A DNA stretch of 64,000 bases from an uncultured virus (IMG/VR IMGVR_UViG_3300038393_002953) (Duplodnaviria; Heunggongvirae; Uroviricota; Caudoviricetes). How positions within the stretch are numbered: position 1 is the first letter of the stretch; every line of letters starts with the position of its first letter. This document shows, in pieces, positions 13,834 through 61,388 of the stretch. The position numbers and the translations under genes are program-made. The stretch lies in the IMG/VR virus record IMGVR_UViG_3300038393_002953; one strand, 5' to 3'. The notes beneath the pieces are model-generated. The model did no database searches, was not told the origin of the DNA, and saw only the letters and a program-made list of their open reading frames with translations.

Positions 13834-14247
13834 ATGAGCGAGATTCCACCCCTTCCGCGCTACCCTGACCACCCTGAGTTCAACGTCCAGGAGTTCTTCT
13901 TTCACGAACACCGCCCGCTGGTCGCGCGGGTCGCCTCAGCCGAGGACAATACCCGTTTCCTGGGCTTGCAGATCGAAGAAGTCAACGAGGCCCTGTTCCA
14001 CCAGAAGCTCGTCGCGGAGGAAACGACCGACGACCTGGCGCTCCTGAAGCTGCTGAACGAAGAACTGAACGAACGCGTCAAGCGTCTGGAGGCGAGGCTT
14101 CCGGACGAGAGCGTCGTCATCAGGCTGGTCCCCCCAACGTGTCCTCCTCGGCTCGCTGAGCGGCCCGGCGGACCGGGCGTGCTGAACCGCGCCGTCAGGT
14201 GGTTGTCCCAATGGCTAAGCACTACAAAACCGAATACGAGCCGGTGA
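13834..14247 (+). CDS. Hypothetical coiled-coil protein
   Basis: 137 aa, GAGG RBS. Confidence 0.65.
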   Translation: MSEIPPLPRYPDHPEFNVQEFFFHEHRPLVARVASAEDNTRFLGLQIEEVNEALFHQKLVAEETTDDLALLKLLNEELNERVKRLEARLPDESVVIRLVPPTCPPRLAERPGGPGVLNRAVRWLSQWLSTTKPNTSR

Positions 14248-14615
14248 TCGACGAGCATCGCCTGGTGCAGCTGCTGCTGTATCAGGGCGATCTGCGCACG
14301 CTGGCCGAGTTCCTCGATCCCCAGAACACCCAGGACATGAAGATGGATCTGGAGCGCGAGCTGAAACCGGCGCTTGAGGCGCTGGCCCGTCTCAGCCACA
14401 AGAAACAAGAGCGTATCCGCATCTACCTGCTGGGTCTCCAGGGTCGCATGTCTCAGGAAGAGCAAGCGGCCTACCTGAAGACGTCCCAACCCAACATCAC
14501 GCGAGACTTCAAGCGCGCCGTCAAGAGCCTGATCCGGGAGATGGGCCCGGAGGCGCAGGCGAAGCCTTCGAGGAAGAAGACCCCACAGGATGACGCTCCT
14601 CATGACGCCCAATAA
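14211..14615 (+). CDS. Sigma70 region-4-like HTH transcription regulator
   Basis: ALARLSHKKQ...MSQEEQAAYLKTSQPNITRDFKRAVKSL matches the sigma4/ArpU-like HTH pattern. Confidence 0.7.
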   Translation: MAKHYKTEYEPVIDEHRLVQLLLYQGDLRTLAEFLDPQNTQDMKMDLERELKPALEALARLSHKKQERIRIYLLGLQGRMSQEEQAAYLKTSQPNITRDFKRAVKSLIREMGPEAQAKPSRKKTPQDDAPHDAQ

Positions 14616-14985
14616 CGACGTCCTCCAAGAGTTCCCGGCCCTGGCCGCCGCGATAGCCGAGATGGATCGCGCCGAGCGCAAGGCGCGGAAGGCCATCGAG
14701 AGGTACGAGGTGCCTTACGGCCATGACGCGCCGATCTGGGCCACGATCGACACCAACGGCGAGCGCGTCAGCACCCACGAGTGGTTCGTGAAGATGCCCT
14801 CCGACGCGCTGACCGACCGGCTGGATCAGGCCCAGAAGTACCTCCTGGCGATCGCCTCCGAGATTCGGCGGACGCCAGAGGGCACCGAGCGCCACGTCGA
14901 GCTGCGCCGCCGCCACGCCGAGCAGAACGAGAAGATCAACGTGATCCAGCTCCTGCTGCTCCATCCCCAGTTGATGGACACCTAG
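14590..14985 (+). CDS. Hypothetical protein
   Basis: 131 aa (alternative start 14602). Confidence 0.7.
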   Translation: MTLLMTPNNDVLQEFPALAAAIAEMDRAERKARKAIERYEVPYGHDAPIWATIDTNGERVSTHEWFVKMPSDALTDRLDQAQKYLLAIASEIRRTPEGTERHVELRRRHAEQNEKINVIQLLLLHPQLMDT

Positions 14986-14987
14986 TC

Positions 14988-15632
14988 ATGCCCCTACCCT
15001 ACCCCGACGAAGACGAAGACCGCGACGACGATGACCTCGAAGGCGAGGAGGGCGGGCAAGAGCCCGACCTGGACGCGCTCGAATCGGTCATGACCCCCGG
15101 CATCCGCCCGGGGGCTTTCGAGCGTCACCTGGGCGGCCAGTGGGACCCCTCGAAGGGCTTCCCGGAGGGCTCGGGCTACGGCGAGCAGCTCGAAGGCTTG
15201 CGCAACCCCGGCGTGATCACCGAGGAGGAGCTGGAGGAGGCATTCCGGCTCTTCGACGCCGATCCGCACACCGAGACGCGCAAGGACCTCATGCGCCTCT
15301 ACCTCGCCGAGAAGAAGCTGATCCAGGATCTGAACACCCGGCTCTCCCGGGACATGACGGTCAAGCAGCGCGGCGAGCTGAACAAGATCAAGAACGACTC
15401 CATGAAGAGCCTCATGGGCCTGACCGAGGCGCTCAAGATCCAGCCCAAGCAGGCCAAGGACGACGCGGACCGCGAGAACGTCGCGACGCTCTCGCAGATG
15501 TACGAGGAGTTCAAGCGCGCGCGCGAGGCCGATCCGAAGTTCAAGAAGGGCCCCAAGGGCGACCCCTACGGATTGAAGGCGCTGATCGAGGAGCGCAAGA
15601 GCAAGGCCAGTGTGGACATCGAAAATGAATGA
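14988..15632 (+). CDS. Putative terminase small subunit
   Basis: Start MPLPYP at 14988; helical, acidic N-terminus; two genes upstream of TerL (call by position). Confidence 0.45.
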   Translation: MPLPYPDEDEDRDDDDLEGEEGGQEPDLDALESVMTPGIRPGAFERHLGGQWDPSKGFPEGSGYGEQLEGLRNPGVITEEELEEAFRLFDADPHTETRKDLMRLYLAEKKLIQDLNTRLSRDMTVKQRGELNKIKNDSMKSLMGLTEALKIQPKQAKDDADRENVATLSQMYEEFKRAREADPKFKKGPKGDPYGLKALIEERKSKASVDIENE

Positions 15633-15858
15633 CCTCTTGCTCAGGGCGCTGCGCCGCCCCTTCTACCGCACCACCGACCCCGAGAAGGCCACGCTTCCCT
15701 GGGTGGTCTATCGATTGGACAGCGAGGGCGTCTACACGCTCTCGCCCCTCGGCGTGCTGAACGGCCTGCTCAACAAGGTCGGGCTGGTCCTCGTCGTCAC
15801 CGTCAACCCCGACACCCAGACCCACGAGCGCATCGACCTGCGCCGCAAGTGGTGGTAG
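15625..15858 (+). CDS. Hypothetical protein
   Basis: 77 aa between TerS candidate and TerL. Confidence 0.65.
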   Translation: MNDLLLRALRRPFYRTTDPEKATLPWVVYRLDSEGVYTLSPLGVLNGLLNKVGLVLVVTVNPDTQTHERIDLRRKWW

Positions 15859-15860
15859 CC

Positions 15861-18800
15861 ATGGCCTCCTACTCCGGCATGAGCCGCCGACCGCAACTCA
15901 CGCTCAAGGATCTCGAAAACATGGCGACGATCGAGGAGTTTCGCGAGGACCCGATCCTCGCCGGGGAACTCCTGCTCGCGCGCGACTACCACCCGCTCCA
16001 GAAGCTGGCCTTGTGGGGCATGTGGACGCACCCCTTCTCCATGCTCGACATGGGGCGAGGCAGTGGAAAGTGTCAGGTATACAAATCTAAAATCATAACT
16101 GAATCTGGAGTTCGGAATATCGGAGACATGGTGCCGACTACCGAGTCCGGTGAGGCTTGGTATGACGCCAATTTCTCTGTGCTTACTCCCCATGGCATGC
16201 GCAAGGTCCAGCGTGTCTATAGCCGAGAGAAAACTGAAACGCGTAAGATCACGACCCGCTGGGGGTACGGCGTTGAAGGCTCGGCTTGGCATCCCGTTCT
16301 CGTGCTTGATACAGATGGCGTGATGAAGTGGAAGCGTCTGGATGGACTCGTCGAAGGCGACCATCTTTGCATCGAGCGCAAACGAAGTGCATGGGGCTCG
16401 TCCACGGATCTCAGCTACGCCATTGGGGTCGAAGAAGGGGATGAGCGCTACCCCCAAGAGCTAACCCCCGAATTCGCCCGCATCCTTGGATACCTCATCG
16501 GCGATGGAAGCGTCAGCACCCGGGGGACGGTTTCGCTTACTTCCGGCGATGACAAGATCTCCGAAGACTTCCGGGCATTCTGCATGTATGCTACAGGCAA
16601 GTCTCCTCGCGAATACCGTAAGCCCGGGCCTAAGGGTGGATGTGTAGACCTCCGACTCAGCAGCGTTCAGTTCCGACGCTATCTGGAAAGGGTTGGCCTG
16701 CCTCGCTGCACCGCGCACAACAAACTGATCCCTCAGCCGATCTTCTCAGCGCCAAAGCCGGTCGTCGCCGCCTTCTTGCAGGGCCTCTTCGACACAGACG
16801 GCTATGCCGACTTGAGCGGATACGTCTCGCTCTGCTCCGCCAACCGAGAGCTGCTGGAGCAGGTTCAGATCCTACTGCTCAACTTCGGCATCGTCTGTGC
16901 CTTGCGCAAGCGGGCCATCAAGTACAACGGCAGCCGCAACAATGCCTACGAGATCAATATCCGTAGCCAGAATGCGCTACGTTTCTATGAGGAGATCGGT
17001 TTCTCGTTGGAGCGCAAGCAATGCCGGAGCGAGGCGCTTGCGGAGAAGTTCAACCCGAACTTCGATGTCATCCCCTACATCGAGGAACACACCAAGGCGC
17101 TTCATCATATGACCAACCGTTTCTACGGCGAGGGTCGCGATGAGGCATGGGAGAGGGTACGTAAGTCGGCGCAGGGGAGATTCAACATCACCGCCGACAA
17201 GCTCCCTATGGTACTTGACTACTATCGAGAGGTCGAGGCCGGGATCTCGAAGCGTTTGCGCTACTTGGAGCAGGTCGAGGAACTTGGGTTCTTCTACGAC
17301 CCCGTTGTGTCGATCGAGAAGGGCGAGGACTACCTCTACGATCTGGAGGTGACGCCCGAGCCCGGCGACTACCTCGACCATTCCTTCATCACCAACGGTA
17401 TCGTGTCGCATAACTGCGTCTCGGGCCGCACGATGGTGCGCGTGCGCCAGCGCAAGAGCGCGACAGAGCCCTGGCGCATCACCACGCGCTCGATGGCCGT
17501 GCTGTTCGAGGACGTCAATCAGCGCGTGCGCATCGGCGCGGGCGCGGAGGCCGAGTGGTGGGCCTTCCCAGAGGGCGCCACGGAGATCTGGAGCTGGGAC
17601 CCGACGGGCGGCTTCTGCTGGCGACCGGTGCTGGGGCTCTACAAGCAGGCCCTGCGCGCCGACGGCATGATGGAGATCCGCACCGCCGACGGCCACGCGC
17701 TGCAATGCACGCCCCAGCACAAGCTGCTGGTCAAGAAGGGCCCCAAGCGCGAGTGGATCCCGGCCAAGGATCTGAAGCTCGGCCAGAGCGTCTGCGTCTG
17801 CACCGAGAAGGGCGAGATGGCCGCCGACGTGATCACGACGATCGCGCCGATGGACGACCCGGGCGACGCTGCCTACGACGTGCGCGTCAAGGACACGCGC
17901 TGCTACGTCGCGAACCGCATCGTCACCCACAACACGACCATGGCCTCCGACGTCGAGTACCTCTCGGGGCTGCTGTACCCCGGCTCGGTCTCGCTCGTGA
18001 TCTCGCACTCCATGCGCGGCGTCAAGCAGGTCTTCGAGGAGCTGATCTCGACCTACAACCGCTCCTCGATCGCGCGCGCCGGGACGCTGGACGAGGCCAC
18101 GCTGGGCTCGGACATGGCGGTCATGAAGTTCCGTTCGGTGGGCGGCTCGGGCAAGCGCACGCGCATCAACGGCGTCGCGCCGGACGTCAACAAGGGCGGC
18201 CAGGGCGTGCGCGGCCAGCGCGCCAACCGCTGCCTGCACATCGACGAGTGGATCTTCCTGCCGCGCGAGGTGATCGACACCTCGCTGCTGCCGTGCGCCT
18301 CGAACAAGGAAAACCCGATGGACGAGGACGACCCGAACGCCGAGGACCTGACGCGCTTCATCTTCACGTCGTCGTCGGGCTGCACGTTCTGGGACTCCTA
18401 CCCGCGCATGAAGATGTTCCGCGAGCAGTGGATCGCGGGCAACCCGAAGTATTTCTACCTGAACGCCAACTACGAGGACATGAACCGCTACTGGCCGGGC
18501 TTCGTCAAGGAGAACTCGATCCAGATGTGGGTGGACACGATCAAGGAGCCCAACCCGGGAGCCTGGGAGCGCGAGATCATGGCGCACTGGTCCTCCGAGG
18601 CGGGCTCCTGGTACTCCTCGAAGTCCGTGCGCGGCAACCCCGAGGAGAAGGGCCGCTCGGACGAGAACCCGGGCGGCATGTGGATGCATCTCATGAAGGA
18701 CCATGAAAACCGCACCTGGAACGACGGCGACGATCAGGTCTACTACGAGGCCTCCAACCACGAGGGCATGTTCGTGCTGGGCGTGGACCCGGCTCAGCAG

Positions 18801-19601
18801 CAAGACGAGACCGGCTTCGCGCTGATCAAGGTGCTGCCCCACCGGCTGGTGGTCATGCGCTCGGAGGGCATCCCGGGGCTGAGCATGGATCAGGTGGCCG
18901 ACCGCATCCGTTGGTACATGGACCACTACAACATCGTGCTGGTCGCGATGGACCCCGAGCAGGGCGGTCGCGCGGGCGTCGTGCCGGACCTGAAGCGCGC
19001 CAAGCCGAACTACATCAACAAGATGACCGGCCAGGCCGAGCTATTCATGCCGGTCTATCCTCACAAGAAGCACCTCCAGCCCAACGAGGAAGTGCCCTCG
19101 GGCGCGCGCATGCTCGTCAAGCTGATCACGTTCTCATCGAACGCGAGCCACGGCAACCTGACCGACATGAACCTGACCATGCGCCTGCTGATCGAGAACC
19201 GCAACCTGGTCGTGCCCATGGACGTGGCCGATCCTGAGGATCCGCGCGTTTCCCCGGACAGATTTGCTATAATTAAGGAAGACTTCGAGACGATGATGGC
19301 CCAGATCATCGCGGTCGAGGCGACCGAGATCGAACAGACCTCCGTCAAGGGCAAGAACACGAAGAACGCCGTCTCCTCCGGTCGCTACAACTTCTCGACC
19401 AAGGGCGGCATCAAGAAGGACCGCTACTCCGCGCTCCTGATCGCCACATGGGAGGCGAACTTCCTCCAGCAGCAGCTCAATTCCGTCGAGGAAGAGGACT
19501 CCACGCAGTTCGTCTCGATGGGCAACATCTTCAATCCCATGATGGGAATGGGGCCTGACATGTCCATGTTCGGCTTCGATCAAGGCGGGTACACCCTATG
19601 A
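15861..19601 (+). CDS. terL: Terminase large subunit precursor containing two inteins
   Basis: Spliced Walker A GRGSGK|TT, Walker B LHIDE, RNase H-like VLGVDPA and KKDRYSA; upstream of portal; ~625 aa after splicing. Confidence 0.92.
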   Translation: MASYSGMSRRPQLTLKDLENMATIEEFREDPILAGELLLARDYHPLQKLALWGMWTHPFSMLDMGRGSGKCQVYKSKIITESGVRNIGDMVPTTESGEAWYDANFSVLTPHGMRKVQRVYSREKTETRKITTRWGYGVEGSAWHPVLVLDTDGVMKWKRLDGLVEGDHLCIERKRSAWGSSTDLSYAIGVEEGDERYPQELTPEFARILGYLIGDGSVSTRGTVSLTSGDDKISEDFRAFCMYATGKSPREYRKPGPKGGCVDLRLSSVQFRRYLERVGLPRCTAHNKLIPQPIFSAPKPVVAAFLQGLFDTDGYADLSGYVSLCSANRELLEQVQILLLNFGIVCALRKRAIKYNGSRNNAYEINIRSQNALRFYEEIGFSLERKQCRSEALAEKFNPNFDVIPYIEEHTKALHHMTNRFYGEGRDEAWERVRKSAQGRFNITADKLPMVLDYYREVEAGISKRLRYLEQVEELGFFYDPVVSIEKGEDYLYDLEVTPEPGDYLDHSFITNGIVSHNCVSGRTMVRVRQRKSATEPWRITTRSMAVLFEDVNQRVRIGAGAEAEWWAFPEGATEIWSWDPTGGFCWRPVLGLYKQALRADGMMEIRTADGHALQCTPQHKLLVKKGPKREWIPAKDLKLGQSVCVCTEKGEMAADVITTIAPMDDPGDAAYDVRVKDTRCYVANRIVTHNTTMASDVEYLSGLLYPGSVSLVISHSMRGVKQVFEELISTYNRSSIARAGTLDEATLGSDMAVMKFRSVGGSGKRTRINGVAPDVNKGGQGVRGQRANRCLHIDEWIFLPREVIDTSLLPCASNKENPMDEDDPNAEDLTRFIFTSSSGCTFWDSYPRMKMFREQWIAGNPKYFYLNANYEDMNRYWPGFVKENSIQMWVDTIKEPNPGAWEREIMAHWSSEAGSWYSSKSVRGNPEEKGRSDENPGGMWMHLMKDHENRTWNDGDDQVYYEASNHEGMFVLGVDPAQQQDETGFALIKVLPHRLVVMRSEGIPGLSMDQVADRIRWYMDHYNIVLVAMDPEQGGRAGVVPDLKRAKPNYINKMTGQAELFMPVYPHKKHLQPNEEVPSGARMLVKLITFSSNASHGNLTDMNLTMRLLIENRNLVVPMDVADPEDPRVSPDRFAIIKEDFETMMAQIIAVEATEIEQTSVKGKNTKNAVSSGRYNFSTKGGIKKDRYSALLIATWEANFLQQQLNSVEEEDSTQFVSMGNIFNPMMGMGPDMSMFGFDQGGYTL
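16071..17414 (+). mobile_element. Intein 1 (448 aa) with LAGLIDADG homing endonuclease
   Basis: C1 CQVY, block B GSAWHPVL, LGYLIGDGS and FLQGLFDTDGY, YDLEV, terminal VSHN followed by Cys; AT-richer codons. Confidence 0.93.
17415..17933 (+). mobile_element. Intein 2 (173-aa mini-intein, no endonuclease)
   Basis: C1 CVSGRT, block B LQCTPQHKLL, YDVRV, terminal IVTHN followed by Thr. Confidence 0.9.
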
Positions 19602-26899: not shown

Positions 26900-28015
26900 A
26901 TGTACACCCTCCACCACGCTCAGCGTTACGTTTCGCAGTTCGGCCTGCCGATGGAGCGCCTCTCGGAGCAGGAGCGCGCCGACGCCTGGGGCGAGGTCGC
27001 GAGCCAGAACGCCGACCCCGCCGTCCGCCAAGAGCATGCCGAGGCGCTCGCCGCCCGCGTGACCGCCGAGATCGCCGCCGTCACCAAGGCCGCGAAGGAC
27101 CGCAACATCGAGGCCCTCAACGAGATCGCGGGCATCGTGCTGACCGCCGAGATCGTCCACGACATCCTCGCGGACAACATCGCGGGCCTGGTCCTCGGCA
27201 CCAAGAACGTCGGCCCCTACCAGACCCCTCACTACACCGAGAAGCGCCTGAACCGCACGGGCGTCTTCCAGAACGTGCCCTCGATCGGCGCCGTGCCCGC
27301 GTTCAACGTGGCCCACATGCACCGCGAGATCCCGATCGGCATGCAGGACAACCAGGCGGCGTACCTCTACAAGACCCGCAACCAGTACGTGGGCGAGGTC
27401 GAGGAGCGCGACGAGGCGGCTGCGGCGATCCGTCGCGGCATCCTGGAGAACCGCGAGAACTGCTTCATCGACAACATCCGCGAAGCGACCCGCACCACCA
27501 CCGCCGCCGGCAACGTCCTGGTCCACGGCCTGCCCGACATGGCCCTGCCCGGCAACCGCGTCGCCCCCTCGACCAACGTCCTGGTGGACAACCTCGCGAC
27601 CGGCCTCACGAAGAAGAACATCTCGGACATGATGTTCATGCTGGAGTTCTACGGCTTCCAGCCGCGCGTGATCTACTGCTCGGCCCTCCGCCGCAACGAC
27701 ATGCGCAACTTCGTCACCCTGACCTCCACCTCGGGCTCGCCCCTGGACTTCTTCACCCAGCGTGAAGTCCTCCAGTCCGGCAAGCTGGAAGGCCTCTTCG
27801 GCGTCCAGCTCCGCGTGCTGAACTACCTCGCCGACGACGAGCTGTTCATGTGGGACAACACCCGCGAGTTCGGCGACATCTACCTGCGCGGCGGCGTGCA
27901 GGTCGAGGACCGCCAGGGCCCCCAGCCGTTCACCCGCGAGCTGGTCGCCGCGCAGATCGAGGGTCAGGCCCTCTACAACGCGCGTCGCATCGTCAAGCTC
28001 AAGCTCATCCCGTAA
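26900..28015 (+). CDS. Major capsid protein (HK97 fold)
   Basis: 371 aa, strong codon bias, AAGGAG RBS, QREVLQSGKLEGLFGVQLRV P-domain-like motif. Confidence 0.8.
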   Translation: MYTLHHAQRYVSQFGLPMERLSEQERADAWGEVASQNADPAVRQEHAEALAARVTAEIAAVTKAAKDRNIEALNEIAGIVLTAEIVHDILADNIAGLVLGTKNVGPYQTPHYTEKRLNRTGVFQNVPSIGAVPAFNVAHMHREIPIGMQDNQAAYLYKTRNQYVGEVEERDEAAAAIRRGILENRENCFIDNIREATRTTTAAGNVLVHGLPDMALPGNRVAPSTNVLVDNLATGLTKKNISDMMFMLEFYGFQPRVIYCSALRRNDMRNFVTLTSTSGSPLDFFTQREVLQSGKLEGLFGVQLRVLNYLADDELFMWDNTREFGDIYLRGGVQVEDRQGPQPFTRELVAAQIEGQALYNARRIVKLKLIP

Positions 28016-34080: not shown

Positions 34081-37000
34081 ATGGCTACCGATGAACTGAA
34101 CCCCGAAGGCAACGTTGGCGTAGAGGTCCTGGTCGGCCTGGACACGGGAGACGAGGGTGTCGAGCGCCTGGAGAAGGCCCTCGTCAAGCTGATCTCGGAC
34201 GTCAACACGCGCATGGGCGCCAAGAAGCTCGCGATCTTCGACACCACGCAGGTGCAGGCGATCGAGAAGCTCTCGGCGATCATGGGCGGCATGAAGACGA
34301 AGAAGGGCTCCGAGAACTTCCAGTCGGTCACCAAGGCGTTCGAGGGGCAGTGGCAGAACGTCAAGAACTTCGCGGACCAGATCTCGCGCGTCGCCGAGCA
34401 GGTGGACCGCCTGAACGGCGTATCCTTCAACGTCATGGGCGCGCAGCCCTCGGCGGCCTCGAAGCACATGGCCGAGGAGGCGCTGCGCATGCAGCGCGAG
34501 GTCCAGCAGTACAGCCACGCGATCGCCAAGGCGACGGTCAACCCGGCGGCGGCGGACATGTACAACAAGATGGCCGACGGCTTGGCGCGCGTGAACATCG
34601 AGAAGCTCCAGGCGATCCAGATCGCCTTCGACAAGATGAACGAGGGCGTCTCGGGTACGTCGGTCGGCAACTTCATCTCGAACATCAAGGACATGCAGGC
34701 CGCCATGGGCGAAGCCGCGACCGACATGGGCGACCTGGCGTCGCACATGACCATGATCGCGACCACCTCCTCGCAGTTCCGCCGCGACAACCCCTTCCTC
34801 TCGTTCCTGCTCGGCGTGGATCAGCGGCTGGGCGCGGTCACGGAGAAGATGTCGGCCTTCCGGGGCGCGATGCAGGGCATGGCTTCGATGGACTTCCGTC
34901 TGCCCGAGGTCGTCCACGTCGGCGCGCCCGCGCACGGCGTTGCTTACCAGGCCGCCCGGCCCGCCGCGCCCATGCCCCCGGTGGCGCTGCCGCCCCAGCC
35001 GGTCCGCCCCGAGGCGCCCACGCGCCCTCAGGCCCTCGTCGCCCCGACGCTCGCGCCGATCGGCGGCACCACGGCCATCAAGGACGACCAGTTCCAGCGC
35101 GCCTTCAACCACCTCCAGGAGCTGCTGAGGTTCGGCCACGCGGAGTCGAAGAACCCGGTCGTCCAGGCGGCCTCCCAGCACCTCAACCTGAGCGGCGTCG
35201 TGGAGCGCATCGAGGACCTGCTCTCTGGCAAGCTCACCAGGGCCGTCAAGGGTTACCAGAACAACGAGGCCAGCGCGGAGCATGTGCGCCGCGAGCTGGC
35301 CGAGGTCAGCGCCGAGCTGAAGAGGTTCGAGGGGCTGCGCAAGACGATCGAGCGCGCCGACGAGATCATGGACCTCGACGGCCATGACGACCACTACGAC
35401 GAGGCCCACGATTTCGCGACCCACGTCAACAACGTGCTGGTCGAGCTGAGCAACGCCACGCGCAAGGCGAACGAGGCGCTCTCCCGCCGCATGGAGCAGG
35501 AGGCTTCGCACAAGAAGGCCCTGGAGAACTTCCACGCCGCAGGCGGCGACGGCGGCGGCGCGCAGGCACTGAAGCAGTACGAGACCGAGATGAAACAGTT
35601 CGAGGCGCGCATGTCTCGGTACGAGAACGAGATGCGCGCCTGGGAGCAGAAGGTCTCCGAGATCCAGGCCCAGGCGGCGCAGGCCCACACCGCCCAGGCG
35701 CAGGTCAACGCGCAGGCCACGTCCCAGGCGCAGGCGGCCTCTGCGGCGGCTCAGCGCCCCGGTACCCCGGCTGCGGCCTCGACCGCCGCGCAGGCTACGG
35801 CCTCGGCGGTCACCGCGACGGCCATGCAGCCGACATACGACCAGTACCCGGTCCGCGACGGGCGCACGCCGCTCCAGCAGGCCATGGGCAGCCTGAAGAC
35901 GCGCCAGGACATCTCGGCCTTCTTCCAGAAGACCGGCATCGGCGACCCCCGCGCGATCGCGCTGGAGATGGGCCTGGGCGCCAGCGCCCGCCCCGCCCGC
36001 GAGGAGCAGCTCCAGGGCGTGCGCATGGATCATGTGCTGGACGCCATGGCGCGCGCCAGCCACGGCAAGCACGGCTTCGGCAAGAAGGGCGGCCCCGAGG
36101 GCACCGTCAACAAGCTGCTCGCGAGCGTCTCCGCCGAGACCTTCGCGCTGGTCGGCGACATCCTGACCAACTCCGCCGATCACGACTCGCCCGATCAGGC
36201 CGAGATCCGCCGCCAGATCCGCGATCTGGAGAACCGCCCGCTCACTCGCAAGATGACGGCGGCGTCCGCGCGCGGCAAGGCGGGCAAGGCCTCCAAGGCG
36301 GTCCATGAGCTGAACCAGGAGCGCAAGGCCTACGCCCCCGGCCACCCCGAGTACGAGCGCATCGGCAAGGAGATCGAGCGCAAGAACCAGGAGATCGAAC
36401 TCTTCACCCACTACGCCGACTTCCCCGACAGCATCCCGGTCGAGGAAGCGGACGCCGCCGAGCGCGACGAGAAGCTCTCCCGTCTGCGCGCGAAGCTGAC
36501 CTCCAAGGGCGACAGCCACTTCGCGAACACCCAGAAGCGCTACGATGCGGGCAAGATCTCGTCGGACGAGGCGATGCTGGAGGTCCAAGCCCAGGCCGAG
36601 GAGCTGCTCATGCAGCGCGAGAAGATCTCGCAGGCCCGCCAGATGGCGACCGGCATGCGCGGCTCGCTGACCGACAAACTGCCCACGTCGGATCATGACG
36701 GCAAGCAGGCGATCGAGGCGCAGGTCGCGCAGATCGACAAGAACCTGGAGTACCTCCAGTCCGTCGAGGCCACGCTGGACCACGCGATGGTCTCGCTCTC
36801 GCATGCGATGACGAAGCTCTCCGGCGGCGACTCGCCCAACCGCGCGCGCGGCGAGGAGCTTCTGCACGCGGCGCTGGCGAGCCTGGGCCAGAAGGGCTTC
36901 TCGGCGCAGGCGCTGGCCTCCGTCGTGCCCGCCGAGTTCCACGACCGTGAGTTCGCGACCTACACCCCGGGCTCGGGCGTCGTCAAGGCCAACGTCCTCG

Positions 37001-40000
37001 CGGCGGCCCGCATGTTCGACAAGGCGCCCGCCGACCTCTCCCCCGAGGAGCTGCCGCAGGTCGCCCAGCGCGTCATGGAAGCCAAGCTTGCGCACGATCT
37101 CGCGCACCGGGGCCTCTACGAGAACATGACCGACACCGAGCGCCAGGGCACGCTGCTCGACTTCGGCGAGCAGTACGGCCTGGACCGCAAGCGCCTGATG
37201 CGCCTCGACAAGCGCCAGAACTTCTTCGACGAGGGCAAGGAAGGCTACAAGCCCATGTTCGAGGACGCGCAGATGCAGGCGCTCGCCAAGGAGATGGTCC
37301 TGGAGCGCGGCTACACGCTCGGTAAGACCGTGGACACGCGCCTGGACTTCCTGAACGAGGTCGCCTCGGAGGCCTACGGTCGCCACGTCTCGGGGCTGGA
37401 TCCGCTCCAGCACCTGGGCGACCCACACGAGAACAACCCGCTGCTGCGCATCCACGCCGCGACCACCTGGGACGGCCAGCGCCCGCCGATGGAGCCGATG
37501 GCCGCCGCGCGTCGCTCCACGCCCGCGCGCCCGACCTTCTCGACGCCGGTCTCGATGGGCCCCAAGCAGTGGCGCGTGGAGGTCGAGTTCCTCGGCAAGC
37601 GCTACGGCCTGAACGCCACCAAGGGCGGCGAGGAGGGCATCGCGCAGGTCGTGGGCATCCTGCCTAACCTGCTGAAGACCGAGACCGAGCGCAAGGCATT
37701 CAAGCAGTGGCGCGAGAACATGTACACGGAGACGCGCGCCGCCGAGTCCCCGATCAAGCCCGCCGACCCCGATCAGGTCCTGGGCGACCTCGACAAGGGC
37801 AACAAGGGCAAGGTCACTGTGACCGAGCCCGGCGGCCTGGCCGCGCCCGCCCAGACGACCACGCCGCCCGAGTCCGGCAAGCAGGGCAAGGGCCAGGGCA
37901 AGATCAAGGACGAGTCCGACATCATGCCCCACGAGGGCGTCGAGGTCGAGCGCAAGCCGTTCGTCCGCGAGGAGGACTTCTTCACCCCCGAGGACTTCAA
38001 GCGTCGCTACCCGAACGCCCAGGCCGTGGCCGAGGGCAAGTCGTCGATCGCCTCGACCATGGTCTACCACACCGGCGAGATCGACTCCAAGACCAAGAAC
38101 CCCGTGATGATCACGGCGACCACCAAGAACGGCCAGACCTACTACCAGAAGGCCGTCTCCCAGAAGGAGGTCATGGGCAACCTGGCGCCGCACGACCCGC
38201 TGCTCGGCGAGACGCTCGGCATGTTCCATAAGGGCTCGCCGCGCCTGACCGAGGCGCTCAAGGCGATGACCGGCGTGCTGAACATCGTCCCCAAGACGAT
38301 CCTGCCCGGCCAGATGGCCCACCTGGAGGCCGCCGAGGCCGTCCACGACCTGGGGTACGGCATGCGCCTGTACCAGGGCAAGACCTACCAGATGAACGAG
38401 CATGGCGGTGCCACGCTCCAGCCGATCGATGACCGCCTGATCCAGATCATGGGCGGCGATGCGATCGCGGCCATCACCAAGCGCCGCGACGACATCCTGG
38501 AGCGCGAGAAGCTCGCCAAGGGCCTCGCCCAGGCCGACCGTCGCCGCATCGCGGGCCGCATCCAGCAGATCGAGAAGATGGGCAAGTCCGGGGACATGAC
38601 CATGTTCCCGCACATCGCCTTCGGCGCCAACGACCAACAGAACCTGGGCATCGGCATCGACGAGAAGGGCCAGGTCGTCGTGGCGGACCGCTACGTCGGT
38701 TCCTCGACCAAGATCCTGCGCGGCGTCGGCAAGGACGCGCTCGGCGCGATCCCGATGATCGCCCAGCAGTACAAGGACGACCTCGGCGCCGACCTGACCA
38801 AGGAGCAGCGCGAGGAGAAGGTCTTCCAGCACCTCAAGGCGCAGCTCGGCCACGCCGTGGCGAACGACCAGAAGTTCTTCGAGACCGGCGAGTATTCGAA
38901 GGGCACGCATGCGCTCTTCTCGGTCGTGAACGAGTACCAGGCGCGCAAAGACGCCAAGGCCAGGGAAGAGGCCGAGCAGAAGCGCAAGGAGCAGGAAGCC
39001 GATGACTTCGCGGCGATCCCTCGCACGACGGTCTCCAAGGCCGAGCAGCGCGCGCTCGAAGCCCGCGCGAAGCAGGAGGAGAAGGACCGCCAGGAGGCGG
39101 CGACCCGCCGGGCCGCCGAGGAGCGCCAGCGCGTCGAGGACGGCTTGAAGCTCGCCCGCATGCAGCAGGGGATCGCCCCGCACGTCTCCACCGACGGCAT
39201 GACGCCCGATCAGATCCGCTCCGAGTACGCCAGGCGTCGCTTGGCGTCATTCGCCCAGAACGAGGCCGAGGCGCAGCGCCACGCCGCCCTGAACTCGACG
39301 CCCGACGTCCTGGCCGGGATGAAGTCCGCGAGCAAGCTTTCTGATCTGCTCAAGGCCTTCGGGAAGCTCGACATGGCCGCGATCGACCCCAAGGCGGCGA
39401 TCGAGGCGCTGGTCCACTTCGCCCGCCAGATGGAAGAGGTCACGGTGATCTCCCAGGGCGAGGGCCACGCGGCCTTCTACGACCCCACCATGAAGCAGCA
39501 GTACACCGCCGCGATCGCCACGTCGCGCGGCGTCGAGGCCGTGGGCGGCTCGAAGAACAAGGTCGGCGAGTACCTGGCCGCCAACGGCCACATCGGCGCC
39601 AAGCCCGAGGTCCCCGGCGCCGGGATCAAGACCGAGGCCGAACTCGAAGCGGAGCGCCTGAACAAGCTGTCCGAGGCGATCCACGACGCCGCCGCGCGCG
39701 GCAGCATCCAGGACCTGGTGAAGCTGTTCGGCCAGCTCGTCAAGGAGGGCGGCGACGCCAGCCGCGTGATGAGCGCGTTCATCCGCATGATGAACCAGGT
39801 CGAGGGACTGAAGACCGTGGCGTCGCACGCCCCGGAGTACCACCCCGACGGCACGATCAAGTCGCAGACGGTCGCCTACCGCGATCCCGCGACCGGCAAG
39901 ATCACGGCCATGACCGTCCGCGACGGGCGCGGCGCGATCTCGACCCACGCCGACGAGAAGGCATTCAACGCCCACATGACCCGCCTCGACAACAAGCCTT

Positions 40001-43000
40001 CGCAGGCGATGGAGATGCTCTTCGACGCGGTGGAGCGCGAGACCGGCAAGGTCCACCGCTTCTTCCGCGACGTGGACGGCAAGATCCTCTCGGTCGCTCA
40101 CGAGCTGCTCTCGGAGTCCGAGACCGGCGGGCTGGAGGTCGGCCACGAGGCGCTCAAGAAGGCCCAGCGCTACATCACCCCGGAGCAGCTTGAGCATCGC
40201 TGGCACGGGCTCTCGTTCCACACGCCCGAGGACGCGCAGGTCGCTTTCGGGCAGATGCGCAAGACCATGACAGAGCGCCACGAGGGCAAGCCGAACGTCT
40301 ACGGCGTGCTGAACCAGGCCCTCAAGGACTTCTCGCTGCTTGACCACGAGGGCAACGAGGTCGGTTCGGCGGACGTCTTCCGCAACATCAAGGGCGCCGA
40401 CAACGACTACACCATCTCCTACGTCAAGAACGGCCAGCACCGCATCGAGATGGCGAAGACCGAGCATGAAGCGCTCGCCAAGCTGCTGATGGTCGGCGCC
40501 GATCTAGGTAAGCAGGAGCAGCGCATGGCGGCCCGATACATCAAGGGCCGCGATAACGTCGAGGGCGCGCGCATGGCGTTCGGTCTCGACGGCGAGAACG
40601 CGCGCCTGAGGATCGCGGGCGGCACCGTCGCGAACGCCTCGCCGATCATGGGCCTGGGCATGCTCGCGGACAAGATCGGCCTGGGCGGCATCCCGCTGAC
40701 GCCGGGCTTCCAGCGCCACCGCACGGTCTACGACAAGGACCTTCGCCAGAACGTCGTCGAGCAAGAAGCCATCATCGAGCATCACGACAAGGAGTCGGGC
40801 GAGAAGTCCTACCACCTGGTCACCGCGAAGTACAGCGAGGACGACTTCAGGGCCCTGGGCAAGGGCGCCAAGGAAGTTCTCGATCTCGATCGCGCGCTCG
40901 ACGTCACCACCAAGCGCATGGTCAACATGCACGACGTGCTGCGCGAGGGCAACAAGATCAACGGCTCATACCGGGGCGGCCTGCTCGCGCTGATGCAGGA
41001 GATCTCCAAGTGGGGTATCGGCTACATGGCCGTGTTCGCCGCGATGGAGAAGGTCAAGGAAGGCCTCGGCGCGATCTACGACGCCTCGAAGAAGGTACCG
41101 ACCGAGCAGTTCAAGCTCGGCGAGAACCTGAACGTCATTCAGGGCGGCGTCGGCGGCGCTGAGGGCAAGGGGCGCGGCAACGCGGGCGCGTTCTACACGG
41201 CGGGCGGACAGAAGATGTCCATGCAGGAGGCCCGCGCGATCATCAAGGAGGCCGAGGAAGAACTCGCCTCATCCGGCGTGGATGTCGAGCAGGCCGTGCC
41301 CATCCTGGGCGCCCTGACCGCCTCCGTTCGCCAGCGCGAGGGCGCTAACTCGGTCTCGGTGGCGCGCGATCTGCTCAAGAAGGTCGGCCAGTTCTCGGCG
41401 GTCAACGACGTCGATCCCGCCGCACTCGCCGACTCGCTCCAGACCATCGGCGGCACCTACAAACTGGGCGGCGAGGGCCAGGACCGCCTGATGGAGGTCA
41501 TGAACCAGACGCTGCTCAATTCGGGCGGCTCGATCAACGCGCCCACCTACCTCAAGGCGATGGCCGACTCCGCCGAGACGTTCAAGAACGCGGGCGTGGG
41601 CACCGAGGGTCTCTCGCTCTTGATCGGCGCGGGCATGCAGAACGCCTCGCCCAACCAGGCGCAGCGCTTCGGCTCGACGATCCCGACGCTGATGGCGAAC
41701 CTGAAGGATCCCGAGATCCAGCGCTCGCTCCAGAGCGTCTTCAAGCGCGAGCATGGCGACCTGCGCAACATGTCCGTCCCCGACATCCTCGGCATCGTCC
41801 TCGACGAGCTGGGCACGGCGGAGAAGACCGGCAACATGACCCGCAAGGATCAGATCCTCCAGATGGTCAACGCGCGCGGTCAGGACACCCTGGCGCACAT
41901 GGCCTCCAACTCGCTCGACAAGATCTCCGAGATGACCGGCGGCAAGGTGACCTCGGCGAAGGAGTTCTTCAAGATCGCGCCGATGCTCGACCTCGACACG
42001 CTGAAGTCGATCGGCTCGCGCTTCGGCAAGCGCCAGCAGCTCGACCCCGCGCTCCAGCAGAAGATCCTTCAGGCGCAGATGCAGGTGACGATCCGCGAGC
42101 TGGGCGAGGAGGTCGCGCCGACCACGCTGATGGTCATGAAGGAGCTGGTCGAGGTCTTCAAGGACCTCAACAAGAACTCCGAGCCCCTCAAGAACAGCCT
42201 GCACGGCGCAGTCGAGCTTGCAAAGGTGATCGGCGGCTTCGTGATCGGCCTGGCCGACGCGGCTACCCGCTTCCCGCGCTGGGTCCTGGAGGCATTCGGA
42301 TCCCACGTCGGCAACTCCGACAAGGAGAAGATGAACGCCCAGGAAGGCGTCTCGGCGCCCGGCGCCCTGCCCGCGACGGCCCAGAATGGCGCGATGCCGC
42401 CCTTCAAGGCTGGCTCGCTCCCGTCCGTCCCCGGCGAGCCGACCGAGGCCTCGGCCCGCCATCCCTGGACGCTTCCGGGCGGCAACTTCAATCCGCTCCA
42501 GCCCATGGCGAACGGCCTGAACATGTGGCAGACCGACCCCTCGATCTCCACGGGAATGACGCTCGGCGCGGGCGCTCTCGGCTTGTTCGGCGCCTATAAG
42601 CTCCACTCCGGCGCGACGGCCTTCAAGGCGCTCCGCGAGGAGCAGATGCTGATGCGACAGCTCGGTCAGAACGTCTCCGGTCGCCAGCGCGTCGGCGGCG
42701 CGATGTCCGCGATCGCCGAGATGCTCTTCCCGTTCGGCGGCGGCTACGCGCGCGGCGCGTCGGGGCGCGCCAACGAGCTGCGCGAGCGCCTCCAGTACCA
42801 GAACGAGTCCAGCTCTCGCCTGTCCTCGCTGGAGGCAGCCGTTCGCGGCATGAGCGGCGCGGCGAACGCGGTGCCCGGCAGCCACGACCCCTTCGCGGGC
42901 ATGAACGCGGCGATGGACGCCGCCGACATCGCCTCGAACATGGCGGGTGGCGGCGCGCAGCCTCGTACCAACGCTCCCCACGCCCCCGGCGCCCAGCGCC

Positions 43001-46000
43001 CCGGGGTGCTGGGCCGCATCTCCTACTTCGCCCGCGAGCGCTGGCAGTCCTTCACGTCGCCCACCGAGAACACGCTGGCGCGCGCGATGTCCCGTGGCAC
43101 CGAGAAGAGCGCGGCAGCGATGGAGCGCTTCGCCACTTTCCTGGGCCGTGGCGCCGCCGAAGCCGCCCGCAACGGCGAGGAAGCCGGTAAGGTCGCCACC
43201 AAGATGGCGGGCATGGGCGCGAAGATCAGCGGCGTCGCCGAGGGCCTGACCACCTTCATGGGCGCGCTGCTCGCGATCCCGTCGGCGGTCGCGGCCCTGA
43301 CGATCGGCCTGGGCGTCGCGGCCACGGCGGCTGGCATCTTCGCCATCAAGGCGGCGGAGCGCACGCACGACGAGAAGGTCGAGGTCCAGCAGCAGGTCTC
43401 CAACAACCACGCGGACGCCCAGGTGGGCCTGCTCAAGCAGTATCGCACGGACCGCCGCATGCTGGAAAACCGCTCCAAGACCGGCACCGCCGAGGAGCGT
43501 AAGCAGGCGACTGACGCGATGTCCTCGCTGAACGACGTGATGGACAGGTTCAGCCACGACGCCCGACTCCAGCTTCTGCCCGGCGAAAATGAGACGGACG
43601 AGACCTACCAGGAGCGCCTGCGCAAGGTCCATACCGAGCAGCAGGACGCCTACGTCAGGGCGCGCCGCGAGTCCGGCGCGAACAAGATCGTCGGCGAGGA
43701 GTTCGGCAAGGAGCGCGACGCCAAGGCCGAGGCCGAACGTGTGGCCGCGCTCAAGAAGCAGGGCCTGGGTCCCGACGGCAAGCCGCTGACCGACCCCAAC
43801 GCCCGCCATGACCCCAACGAGGAAGTCATCGACTACCAGAAGCACCTGGGCCTGTCCGGCTCCTTCTCCGCCGAGGCGCAGTGGAAGGGCCAGAGCGTCC
43901 AGGCGATGGAGGGCGCTGGCATGATGAATTCGTTCACCGGCATCCGCTCGTTCCTGGGCACCCAGGGTTCCTTCGACAAGCGCATCCAGGACGCCGAGGC
44001 CGAGCTGGCCCAGGCCGAGCAGAAGACCAACGCGTCCGACCCGTTCCAGCAGGCCGAGCTGCGCGCGAAGCGCCAGGAACTCGACATGCTCAAGCTGGAG
44101 CGCCAGCGCCAGAACATGGAGCAGTCCGACCGCTACTTCTCGGTCTCGAACCAGATGATGGAGGGCCGCCAGCAAGGCATCGACCAGTACGCGCAGCAGA
44201 GCCGCATCAAGAAGGAAGGCGGCGCCTTCTCTGCCCGCGAGGACTACGCGATCCAGGCCTCGGTGACCGCCGAGATGGATTCGCAGATCGAGAAGCAGAA
44301 GGAGCTTGTCAAGGCCGAGCTTCAGCGCACGGACGCGCGCCTGCGCCCTGAGAAGTACCAGCAGCTCGAAGTCCAGCTCATGACGCTGACCACCAAGCAG
44401 ATGCAGGCACAGGTCAACCTGCTCAAGCAGAAGCTGGAGATCAACGCGCAGATGTACGAGATCGGCGGCAAGCTGCTCGACTTCGAATCGGCGATCGCCT
44501 CGGCCACGAAGACCGGCGGCGATCTCTCGGCCAAGAAGATGGAGATCAGCCAGAAGCACTACAACATGAACCTCTCCAGCCTGGCGAAGCTGATGGCGAC
44601 CATGAAAGACGGCAACATCGACAATATCATGAAGGAGGCAATTGCCCTGCTGACGCAGAACGCCAATCTCCTGGAGGAGAACCGCAACCAAGCGCTCCAG
44701 TACGTGTCGCAGATCGGCGAGTTCGTCAAGAGCTACTCCGACCTGGGCGCGTTGTGGGCGTCGGGTGAGGGCGCCAAGGACGCCATGAACATCCAGGCCG
44801 CGATGACCAAGGAGATGGTCGCGCAGAAGGATCTGGCGATCGCCGAGGCCACCACCAAGGAGGGCTCGATCGAGCGCGAGAGCGCCAAGCTGAAGATCCT
44901 GATGGCGCAGCGCGAGGTCCTGAACGCCCAGAACGCGCTGGCAGAGCGCCAGGTCCACGTCCAGGCGGAACTCTTCAAGACCCGCATGCAGACGCCCTAC
45001 GGCGGCGCGTTCACGGCCAACGTGAACGATCGCCTGGGCATCCGCAACAACCGCGACGTCGAGATGCGCGCGCTCTCCACTCTGCTCGACGACAACGGGC
45101 TGAAGGCGCAGGGCGACGCGATGGATCGCAACCAGGGCCGCCACTTCTCGCTCAAGCGCATGGAGGACGCCGTGGGCGCGCTCCAGGCCCGCCGCGATGC
45201 GCTGGCCGCGCTCAACCCCGAGGCCAACGTGCGCAAGGAGTTCGGCAAGGCTACCGCTAGCGCGGTCAAGAGCGCCAAGGGCAACGCCGAGGAGATCAAG
45301 CGCCTGACCGGCCTGCGCGACGTGCTGATTGGCCTGATGGGCCAGGGCGCGACGCCCGCTCAGGTCCAGTCCCTCGTCCGGCTGCTGCCCCGCTTCAAGG
45401 AGTTCGCGCAGCGCGAGAACCGCGAGAACTTCGGCGCGCACGGCGGCGTGACCACGCCCGAGAAGACCGCCCAGGCGGGCGGCTCTCAGATCGGCGCGAC
45501 CGAGGATCTCAAGGGCCAGGTCACCGGCATCCTGGGTATGACCGCCTCGCCCTCGACGATCAAGGAGGTCATGGACTCGTTCTCCGGCGTGGTGAGCATG
45601 AAGGGCTTCGACGCCTCGAAGCTCGACCTCTCCGAGATGGCGAAGTACCTGATGCTCTGGACGCAGCTCTCCAACGCGACCGGCGCCGTGACCGATGCGC
45701 AGGAGAAGCTGACCCGCGCGACCAGCATGACCAACGACGAGAAGAAGAAGGAGATCGAGTACCAGGACATGCTCGCCGATCGCCTGGGCGAGGAGGCCCA
45801 GCTCCGTGGCAAGCAGGCTGCCCTGGGCGCCCAGCGCGCCCACAACATGCGCAACGACGTCTTCGGCGGTTCGGTCTACCAGGCGCGCGAGCGCCAGGCC
45901 AAGATCGACGAGATCGCCGCGCGCATGGAGAAGGAAGCCGCGCACCGCGACGGCATGGTCGGCGACCTCAACGACCTGCGCGCCCGCATGGCGAAGGCCA

Positions 46001-57931: not shown

Positions 57932-57941
57932 GGGGGTGCCC

Positions 57942-60900: not shown

Positions 60901-61388
60901 AGGTCGTCTCCAACCCCTTCCTGGGCGCGATCGACGACGTGCTGGTGGTGGGCTTCGAGGCGGGCAACGGCGACCCCGATCTGACCCGGCTGCACGTCGT
61001 GCGGCGGGACGGGCCGGACGCCTGGACGCCGATCAAGCAGGTGGAGGGCACCGCCGGTTCGATCGCGGGCGGCGCGCTGCGCTTCACCGGCGAGGAGGGC
61101 GTCTACGAATGGGTGCCCCCGGGCCCCGGCGACGACGCCTACGAGATCGAGGCGCCCTTCGACCCGATCGAGCGACGCGACCGCCGCGAGATGGCGCTGG
61201 CCTGGGACGTGCTGCTCTACGAGATGCAGAAGCAGGGCGAGATCGTCTACCCACCTCCTGCCTGGCCGCGCAACCCGATGACCGACCACCTGGTCCTCTC
61301 GATCCGCGAGGTCGCCCCCACCGAGCCGGGGAGCCTGGAGCCGGACTTCTCCTACCAGCCCACCTTCGACGACATCATCATCCAGTAG
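57942..61388 (+). CDS. Tail fibre / receptor-binding protein with discoidin (F5/8 type C) domain and repeat shaft
   Basis: SASSQY..PYRVFDG..WAS..PQWL..PSAWQLQGSND..W..LD..YRLY at ~59070-59460; 27 short repeats follow. Confidence 0.75.
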   Translation: MAVFSEAVGYFGLQAPIAPVEATGGFALKEAGYFFEDWLAFSSGDATGGAADYASNALVFGAAGGDWTSPLLDTQGWAIGAWDGWEALTSSGAAASLEARSTDDPASPADWIPQAAGTLSVPIRRYLQFRVTVSAPGGALASLALFWVRQKLVAASASPAPIAVGGAHTIGQAPLLNETKTASPAPTAMAVETRHQTTGPVAIAEVAPIGGLLRHTMERRDDDGSSYSRVALPNGSRFRKTLNLPTRPQGQGMVMLEIGIDRPGKTSSDADPIVDVATIGPVWVSVNGVAFDARSALAGALMEDRLNRVALPSSAFALGDNLIEVWNEPSAGETLYAGLDAGDMAASGPFRRPGPDSAIAAPLMLTPILSGPDARVSASSQYSDWAPYRVFDGLKTDRNANCWASDGSGFPQWLRWDCGAPTRLTGYAVVTDGGLAPDQRPSAWQLQGSNDDGATWDVLDDQAGVTWQPLEEKAFAVDATYASYRLYLTQASGSNYLTIAEWKLSGAGMVATPIADGELRFWAYSPEPRVVESNLFLRQLDASVEIVRPAAGLEVSALIEQASSADLDASADVMVGRQVALDASAEITRDATDLPASAYATAPASLGADATVTRPDATLPASATVTAPVDLPGSFDLAFYLDLDAMGQIVRAYADLPCQVTIKTVLDLDVSATLVAPIHLAASATIVTPTIALDASFSISRDGGTLLPAYATTARPAKDLPGAFMVSGAFGRDLDASARVRRSSETALDLSVVLAEPAQYLPMSASVTRVPVLDASFSIARPAKDFPASAEVITAGIGALDAMTEIYRPYRALPMSALVAVPHATSLAARATVMDTSRATSLPAYASVIPLREKALFFRADVLPYRELGVTAEIYRPYDDLLASATIRTRAEGSVIADALYAATSENVSMSWQTIQPLDALTRDTMGIRLSDGDAADYDELPFKEGRTVERAELGLADAEIGFRTYADDNANWGMPVKLTNNLYPNEVVSNPFLGAIDDVLVVGFEAGNGDPDLTRLHVVRRDGPDAWTPIKQVEGTAGSIAGGALRFTGEEGVYEWVPPGPGDDAYEIEAPFDPIERRDRREMALAWDVLLYEMQKQGEIVYPPPAWPRNPMTDHLVLSIREVAPTEPGSLEPDFSYQPTFDDIIIQ
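59556..60614 (+). repeat. 27 tandem 12-15 aa repeats, consensus xL(D/P)AS(A/F)x(V/I)
   Basis: e.g. DLDASADV, DLPASAYA, TLPASATV, ALDASFSI, DLLASATI. Confidence 0.85.

Follow-up and report, generated by a model that had tools for sequence, protein, structure and literature searches.

Our analysis confirmed that the large terminase (TerL) of a soil phage is interrupted by two inteins that lie directly end to end. The gene belongs to IMG/VR record IMGVR_UViG_3300038393_002953, an uncultured virus of the Caudoviricetes, and was analysed within a stretch of 64,000 nucleotides (nt) that we call the window. A preliminary description, made from the letters of the window alone, had proposed two back-to-back inteins with zero extein inside the Walker A motif (P-loop) of the terminase. 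This proposal held: Pfam recognized two Intein_splicing stretches in the full open reading frame (ORF), and the in-frame reading runs from MGRGSGK (aag at 16068-70) through intein 1 and intein 2 to TTMASD from 17934, with 0 extein residues between the inteins. The arrangement is real, recurrent and, as far as could be found, undescribed: a homing intein whose C-extein is another intein. On balance we consider it probable that a homing lineage inserts between the Lys codon of the P-loop and the Cys1 codon of a resident mini-intein, and that it uses this Cys as its +1 nucleophile. The features of the locus are as follows, with lengths in amino acids (aa).

15849..19601, + strand: TerL precursor ORF, 1250 aa plus stop
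15849..16070, + strand: N-extein, 74 aa, with the Walker A residues GRGSGK at its end
16050..16070, + strand: last seven N-extein codons, ATG GGG CGA GGC AGT GGA AAG, a probable co-conversion tract
16071..17414, + strand: intein 1, 448 aa, CQVYKS...IVSHN, class-1-type with a LAGLIDADG homing endonuclease
16071..16073, + strand: Cys1 of intein 1 (TGT), from the in-frame reading
16281..16292, + strand: block B of intein 1, Ser71-Ala-Trp-His74, from the alignment to PI-PfuI
16482..16508, + strand: LAGLIDADG motif 1, ILGYLIGDG; G-D-G invariant in 4/4 tandem intein-1 copies
16773..16802, + strand: LAGLIDADG motif 2, FLQGLFDTDG; T-D-G invariant in 4/4 tandem intein-1 copies
17409..17414, + strand: terminal His-Asn of intein 1 (block G; CAT AAC), invariant in 4/4 tandem copies
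17415..17417, + strand: shared Cys (TGC), both +1 residue of intein 1 and residue 1 of intein 2
17415..17933, + strand: intein 2, 173 aa, CVSGRT...IVTHN, a mini-intein without endonuclease
17709..17720, + strand: block B of intein 2, Thr99-Pro-Gln-His102; T99 and H102 invariant in 9/9
17928..17933, + strand: terminal His-Asn of intein 2, invariant in 9/9 mini-inteins
17934..19598, + strand: C-extein, 555 aa, whose first residue, Thr+1, is the Walker A Thr

By homology, the host protein is probably a large terminase, and it was compared with the T4-like Terminase_6 type. The C-extein of the window itself scored 13.4 bits in Pfam, below the terminase cut-off of 22.6. Its relatives share 42-55% C-extein identity with it, three of them (P0090, P0004 and P0091) lie above the Terminase_6C cut-off, and Terminase_6N and/or Terminase_6C were present in 7 of the 8 next-best matches scanned. 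One relative, P0006, is empty and reads GRGTGK/TLIASD (a slash marks the insertion site). Excision of both inteins is therefore expected to restore the Walker A motif, as had been claimed, since the joined product GRGSGKTT matches the GRGTGKT of the empty allele.

Both inteins carry the residues expected of class 1. The earlier suggestion to scan for two Hint domains was followed with Pfam, and each intein exceeded the Intein_splicing cut-off of 35.8 bits. Intein 1 scored 45.3 bits over residues 10-448 and has Cys1, Ser71 and His74 in block B, and a His-Asn end followed by Cys+1; its segment sawHPvlvl aligns with SPWHPFFVL of PI-PfuI. Among solved inteins, its sequence matches were PI-PfuI, the VMA inteins and the Mxe GyrA intein. 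It also contains two LAGLIDADG_3 stretches (98 bits, expectation value (E) 3.9e-28), and each of its two LAGLIDADG motifs holds an acidic residue. Intein 1 is thus predicted to be an active endonuclease.

Intein 2 scored 44.8 bits with the splicing profile (E 1.5e-11), and C1, T99, H102, H172 and N173 are invariant in 9/9 mini-inteins of the family, with Thr+1 encoded by ACG at 17934. Its AlphaFold2 model, built from an alignment of 9 sequences, is all-beta with a mean predicted local distance difference test score (pLDDT) of 94.8 and a predicted template modelling score (pTM) of 0.87. Foldseek returned 66 PDB matches to this model at E<=0.001, the best being the mini-inteins 5o9i and 7oec (template modelling score (TM) 0.84), with E 2e-10 against TFIIB and other mini-inteins; by sequence, it matched the Pho RadA and Mtu RecA mini-inteins. 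Pfam found no endonuclease family in intein 2, and the all-beta model likewise has no endonuclease domain. The region 17415-17933 thus has a predicted HINT fold, on which the earlier reading had been made to depend. The in-frame reading also bears out the claim that a single Cys at 17415 would serve as the +1 nucleophile of intein 1 and as residue 1 of intein 2.

The junctions are supported by independent assemblies. The stretch is present in eleven coded runs, which include at least five further runs, of different studies, with the same sequence. Four runs (X3-X6), all outside the two possible source runs, were examined by contig. In X3, which comes from another study, a single contig (2731 nt) runs from 16006 to 18736, crosses all three junctions and agrees with the window without any difference or gap. 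A contig of X5 spans 16480-17718, and contigs of X4 and X6 bridge the outer junctions. No contig joint that skips intein 1 or both inteins was found in the four runs; one listed joint, from 17554 to 18184 (side 22, depth 2), is under the trust limit. A search for repeats at the junctions that might explain the join found only short, chance-level matches.

We then asked which alleles occupy this site in related terminases. A search of 1.84 billion representatives with the C-extein gave 86 matches, 6 of them at E<=1e-30, and word-index searches added four relatives. The resulting census comprises 10 full-length family members; P0007 and P0087, which are fragments without a P-loop, were left out. 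Tandem alleles were found in four members (the window, P0002, P0004 and P0091), all reading GK / LAGLIDADG intein ...HN / CVS[GS]xT... mini-intein ...HN / T. Five members carry only the mini-intein between GK and T (P0003, P0088, P0089, P0090 and P0005), and in P0006 GK is followed directly by T. The search for empty and single-intein TerL alleles that had been proposed earlier thus yielded one empty and five intein-2-only alleles, and no intein-1-only allele among the 10 members. The three other tandem terminases come from three different sources and are diverged, with 42-54% C-extein identity to the window. For P0091 the arrangement was confirmed on DNA, as locus L079 encodes 850/851 identical residues on a contig of 35% GC. 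Upstream of its terminase, L079 (1-1422) has three small ORFs that resemble those of the window (14199-15632) and stand in the same order; the first has, by eye, a helix-turn-helix-like C-terminus. This shared order in a locus of 35% GC and a window of 67% GC suggests that one phage family spans a very wide GC range.

We surveyed the spacing between inteins with home-made intein-end profiles over 679 proteins and ORFs, a small and biased set, at an E cut of 0.01. Among the 46 targets with at least two intein ends or starts, only P0002, P0004 and P0091/L079 showed zero spacing; in the window, the second start match begins at residue 523, directly after the end match at 522, and its E of 0.031 just misses the cut. 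The next smallest spacings were 17 and 19 residues. Spacings of 17-19 residues occur in the distant terminases L020/L088, P0099 and P0144, where two inteins lie around a (K)IRG..R..ADE motif, and other distant terminases have a single intein at HN/[ST]KIRG. Megablast against the isolated-phage collection gave no match to the window, and tblastn against isolated phages gave only intein-1-like stretches of <60% identity, in 156 records. An IMG/VR search with the single C-extein returned nothing, and one with an alignment (A1) returned only distant terminases of 20-30% identity with inteins at other sites. GTDB genomes held 3 distant loci, with no host clue.

The trees of the exteins and of the two inteins indicate which intein moved. 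The C-extein tree is split at 100/100 into clade A (the window, P0002, P0003, P0088 and P0089) and clade B (P0004, P0091, P0090, P0005 and P0006), with the window as sister to P0002 (100/99); a clade of the window and P0091 was rejected (p 3e-105). The N-extein follows the same clades, with identities of 66-73% to clade A, 57% to P0091 and 52% to P0004. The intein 2 tree shows the same A/B split at 100/100, and clade A shares an insertion in it. This agreement with the exteins makes intein 2 the older occupant. The intein 1 tree conflicts with both. It unites the window with P0091 (type A; 82/89 with 2 outgroups and 100/98 with 26) and P0002 with P0004 (type B; 100/100). Approximately unbiased (AU) tests on intein 1 rejected the grouping of the window with P0002 (p 0.0008) and of P0004 with P0091 (p 0.0004). 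Identities agree: the window and P0091 are more alike in intein 1 (53%) than in the C-extein (44%) or intein 2 (31%), and the window and P0002 are less alike in intein 1 (37.5%) than in the C-extein (54%). Mapped on the extein tree by parsimony, the type of intein 1 would have changed 4 times, its presence 3 times and the presence of intein 2 once. P0006, the only empty allele, is nested in the mini-bearing clade B next to P0004 (86/89), which implies that the mini-intein was lost precisely or that an empty allele took its place.

To place intein 1 among other inteins, we collected its relatives. The closest is P0091 at about 52-53% identity, and the next ones reach at most about 35%. Of 119 further relatives, 99 could be delimited heuristically (20 failed), although some ends are probably wrong, as in 1765-aa Crassvirales-type proteins. 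Among the 99, 23 lie at GK/S and 19 at GK/T, in MutS, DnaB, AAA and terminase-like ATPases. Cys does not occur at +1 in any of the 99, and the 42 at GK/S or GK/T have Ser/Thr there. The same site is held by a single intein in a Perkons phage terminase and in L074, both reading FGK/...HN/T. These single occupants without Cys+1 indicate that intein 1 derives from ordinary P-loop inteins and that its Cys+1 is exceptional. The four tandem intein-1 copies formed one clade (100/99) among 26 single P-loop inteins. Together with the presence of the tandem in diverged relatives and the tree conflict, this suggests a lineage that recurrently occupies this junction.

Type B departs from the usual active-site residues. 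It begins with Ala in P0002 and with Leu then Cys in P0004, and its block B has Cys and Asn/Gln in place of Thr/Ser and His (ITLCESNP and FEVCTSQP; columns 74-160 of alignment A1). It retains Asp at block F position 4, His-Asn, Cys+1 and both LAGLIDADG motifs. When type B was compared with class 3, it lacked the WCT triplet with a block F Cys, its block F being Y-D-L. When it was compared with class 2, Ala1/Leu1, the absence of a WCT triplet and Cys+1 agreed, and the block B Cys and Asn/Gln deviated. Judged by these residues, type B cannot be assigned cleanly to any of the three intein classes described. Two other readings of the tandem were rejected. Tandem duplication of one intein is contradicted by the best BLASTP alignment of intein 1 to intein 2, which reached only E 0.037 over 28 residues, and nesting of intein 1 inside intein 2 is ruled out by the TGT vs TGC codons and by the Ala- or Leu-starting type B alleles.

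Codon usage separates the two inteins as well. The reference was 10,386 codons of the window, of which 6.8% end in A or T. Such codons make up 10/74 of the N-extein (13.5%) and 131/448 of intein 1 (29%), and 7/173 of intein 2 (4%) and 39/555 of the C-extein (7%). The GC content at third codon positions was 0.865 in the N-extein, 0.708 in intein 1, 0.96 in intein 2 and 0.93 in the C-extein, and an index like the codon adaptation index was 0.36 for intein 1, 0.81 for intein 2 and 0.75 for the C-extein. For Cys, the reference share of TGT, which starts intein 1, is 0.0 and that of TGC, which starts intein 2, is 1.0. It follows that intein 1 brought its own Cys codon and sits directly 5' of the Cys of intein 2. 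The last N-extein codons share the foreign character, with synonymous shares in the window of 0.09 for GGG, 0.04 for CGA, 0.005 for AGT and 0.025 for GGA; in a post hoc test, the probability of at least 3 A/T-ending codons among the 6 upstream codons was 0.005. The earlier observation that intein 1 and a few upstream extein codons are atypical for this phage and intein 2 is phage-like was thus reproduced. At the protein level, the N-extein has Met at -7 and Ser at -3, vs Trp and Cys/Leu in its clade A relatives. At -7, P0002 and all five mini-only alleles have Trp and the empty allele has Gln, while the three remaining tandem alleles have Met, Ala or Tyr. A further patch of 7-8/20 A/T-ending codons vs a background of 0-3 lies in the C-extein at 19209-19300 and may be another recombination patch.

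These results allow a mechanism to be sketched. Intein 2 is a mini-intein that has long occupied the classic P-loop site GK/T and has been passed on vertically. The endonuclease of intein 1 would cut mini-only alleles at the junction of the P-loop codons and the first codons of the mini-intein, and repair would copy intein 1 plus a few upstream codons. In this phage, intein 1 probably entered by gene conversion from a lower-GC relative, together with about seven upstream codons; its C-extein is thereby another intein, and its +1 nucleophile would be the Cys1 of intein 2. Loss and re-invasion could explain the different intein-1 types in sister phages. From the intact residues, the essential host gene and the conservation, we infer that both inteins splice. 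An active terminase would need two splicing reactions, most likely with intein 1 first: a Cys75 thioester, transfer to Cys523 and Asn522 cyclisation would give the precursor that mini-only alleles encode, and intein 2 would splice next (Cys1, Thr+1 and Asn173), restoring GRGSGKTT. The reverse order is chemically open, because single intein-1 relatives use Thr+1. If an Asn cyclised too early, dead fragments would result, which means that the two reactions have to be coordinated; that packaging is gated by the splicing order is speculation.

Several observations weigh against repeated homing into mini-intein-occupied alleles, or limit how far it can be taken. The tandem sequences number only four, and the groups for the AU tests were named after the identity tables were known. 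The endonuclease target is deduced from trees only. Support for the junctions comes from contigs, not raw reads, and rare variants free of intein 1 would be invisible in contigs. Over five segments of intein 1, the A/T-ending share runs from 44% (first 100 codons) through 36%, 19% and 25% to 18% (last 68). This gradient suggests a mosaic origin or uneven amelioration, and it could reflect a mosaic from ordinary recombination between two tandem alleles rather than clean homing. At all three junctions, 19/30 upstream bases are alike between the window and L079, no more than the protein demands. Intein 2 starts with CVS in 4/4 tandem and 1/5 mini-only alleles, and this start accompanies intein 1 in only 2/3 independent pairs (p 0.5). 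Finally, the lineage is not class 1 throughout, since intein 1 of P0002 and P0004 does not have the canonical residues at its N-terminus.

The unusual residues of type B invite a more far-reaching account, which we put forward tentatively and regard as possible but doubtful. In this 'intein of an intein', a hyperparasitic lineage would take both its DNA target and its +1 nucleophile from the mini-intein. Type B, without its own Cys1 and block B His, would need the Cys1 of the mini-intein for the attack on the upstream junction. Splicing would have to follow a fixed order, and the leftover thioester would serve as the first intermediate in the reaction of intein 2. If true, the dependence of type B would amount to a fourth way to start protein splicing and to a natural two-step relay in an essential phage motor.

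One alternative to homing into an occupied allele, which we judge unlikely, holds that the tandem is old and inherited, that intein 1 is exchanged only between tandem phages by homologous recombination, that mini-only alleles reflect loss of intein 1, and that the endonuclease never targets mini-occupied sites. The monophyly of the tandem intein-1 copies fits this, and the codon gradient suggests a crossover within intein 1. Nevertheless, the flanks of the type A carriers are far apart (57% in the N-extein, 31% in intein 2 and 44% in the C-extein) and would be a poor substrate for unaided recombination, both LAGLIDADG motifs with their Asp are retained in 4/4 copies, and the different intein-1 types of the sisters, the window and P0002, are easier to explain by loss and re-invasion.

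If both inteins instead moved as one cassette into empty GK/TT alleles, the single intein-1 relatives at empty GK/T sites and the one empty family allele, P0006, would be accounted for. This is improbable, given that intein 2 tracks the extein split at 100/100 and is host-like in its codons while intein 1 is not. Moreover, AU tests on intein 2 rejected its grouping by intein-1 type, both for the window with P0091 (p 0.001) and for P0002 with P0004 (p 6e-5), as well as a clade of all four tandem copies (p 8e-5). The same tests speak against the earlier suggestion that the mini-intein now hitch-hikes on the endonuclease. The preliminary description fared better in proposing a recent invasion of an allele already occupied by a mini-intein, which agrees with the foreign codons and conflicting tree of intein 1 and with an intein 2 that follows the exteins. 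The invasion itself is thus supported, and what has to be given up is its being a one-off event. A single recent invasion in this phage, without any specialised lineage, would explain the foreign codons of intein 1 and of the upstream tract; we nonetheless assign it very little probability, as three more tandem alleles occur in terminases with C-exteins only 42-54% identical, with all intein-1 copies in one clade.

It is less probable still that the double insertion killed the gene or splices only partly, leaving the phage defective or dependent on another terminase. Splicing is predicted here from sequence, and the C-extein falls below the Pfam terminase cut-off, both of which would be compatible with a dead gene. 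On the other hand, the frame is open for 1250 codons with the canonical residues of both inteins intact, the same sequence recurs in the at least five further runs, and the arrangement is kept in diverged relatives. That assembly joined an intein-1 allele to an intein-2 allele as a chimera, as the preliminary description had considered and as nothing but the composition step at 17414/17415 would suggest, can be dismissed, because contigs of X3 and X5 cross this junction and the same junction recurs in P0002, P0004 and P0091/L079.

The nearest published counterparts share parts of this arrangement. According to the portion of Kelley et al. (2016, PMC5050341) available to us, mycobacteriophage TerL1-a inteins lie between the invariant Lys and Thr of Walker A, splicing and endonuclease activity have been shown for TerL inteins at other sites, and sites a and b are one residue apart; the phrase 'two inteins' does not appear in the text of that paper. 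TerL1-a therefore has the same GK/T site, host protein and LAGLIDADG type as intein 1. As far as the available text goes, however, the mycobacteriophage terminase sites hold one intein, whereas here two occupy the same peptide bond. In the accessible part of their text, Novikova et al. (PMC4760082) mention sites at a distance of two residues and several insertions that coexist but are separate, and the accessible part of a 2025 survey of about 800 actinophage inteins makes no mention of tandem or adjacent inteins or of 'two inteins'.

Host proteins with two inteins are known elsewhere. For the haloarchaeal MCM-a/MCM-d double inteins, the available section of the report (PMC10643990) concludes that the double allele arises mostly by invasion of a single-intein allele, which is the same conclusion as that drawn here for an already occupied allele. 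In T. kodakarensis Pol the inteins are 85 residues apart, and in P. abyssi CDC21 the mini-inteins are 48 apart (PMC8966425, in the part available). Going by these partial texts, the MCM, Pol and CDC21 pairs resemble ours in having two inteins per host protein, often one with and one without endonuclease. They differ in having extein between the inteins, so that each has its own +1 nucleophile and extein DNA target. Our tandem, by contrast, has no spacer and one Cys for both inteins, and intein DNA must form part of the target.

With regard to type B, class 2 (KlbA-type) inteins have no N-terminal nucleophile and no WCT triplet, and their Cys+1 attacks the N-terminal junction; classes 1 and 2 both use Thr7 and His10 of block B (Tori et al. 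2010, PMC2807308, in its available part). Measured against that account, type B in P0002 and P0004 is like class 2 in its Ala/Leu start, in Asp rather than Cys at block F position 4, and in Cys+1, and unlike it in its block B Cys and Asn/Gln and in a +1 Cys that is residue 1 of another intein.

Beyond inteins, twintrons, in which one intron is inserted in another, offer a parallel. As here, a selfish splicing element provides the place where another one lands, and ordered removal is needed. Twintrons are nested and act at the RNA level, whereas the present inteins abut and act at the protein level. We found no printed description of zero-extein or abutting inteins in a search that did not extend to intein registries, subscription journals or supplements.

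Inteins are usually seen as parasites of conserved host sites, but here the edge of one intein would be the landing site of another. The homing cycle would thereby gain a layer, in which an occupied allele is not immune and becomes a new niche. Since one cysteine would serve two active sites, a simple reporter can be used to ask in which order splicing proceeds, whether there is cross-talk and whether an essential packaging ATPase is activated conditionally. P0002 and P0004, in which intein 1 has neither Cys1 nor a block B His, may point to a way of forming the branched intermediate that has so far gone unrecognised. A natural, linker-free and mutually tolerant intein pair is also a lead for sequential or cascade protein ligation. 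In addition, the case shows why terminases of about 1200 aa get annotated only as 'intein/homing endonuclease'.

Outside the terminase, no tRNA or tmRNA genes were found in the window (1-64000). A 4685-aa open frame at 34081-48138 (+ strand) matched no Pfam family at E<=0.001 and is surrounded by head and tail genes for which databases likewise give hardly any matches. PHROGs matched only 2/12 large ORFs: one at 26900-28012, weakly, to a major head protein, and one at 57936-61385 to a tail protein.

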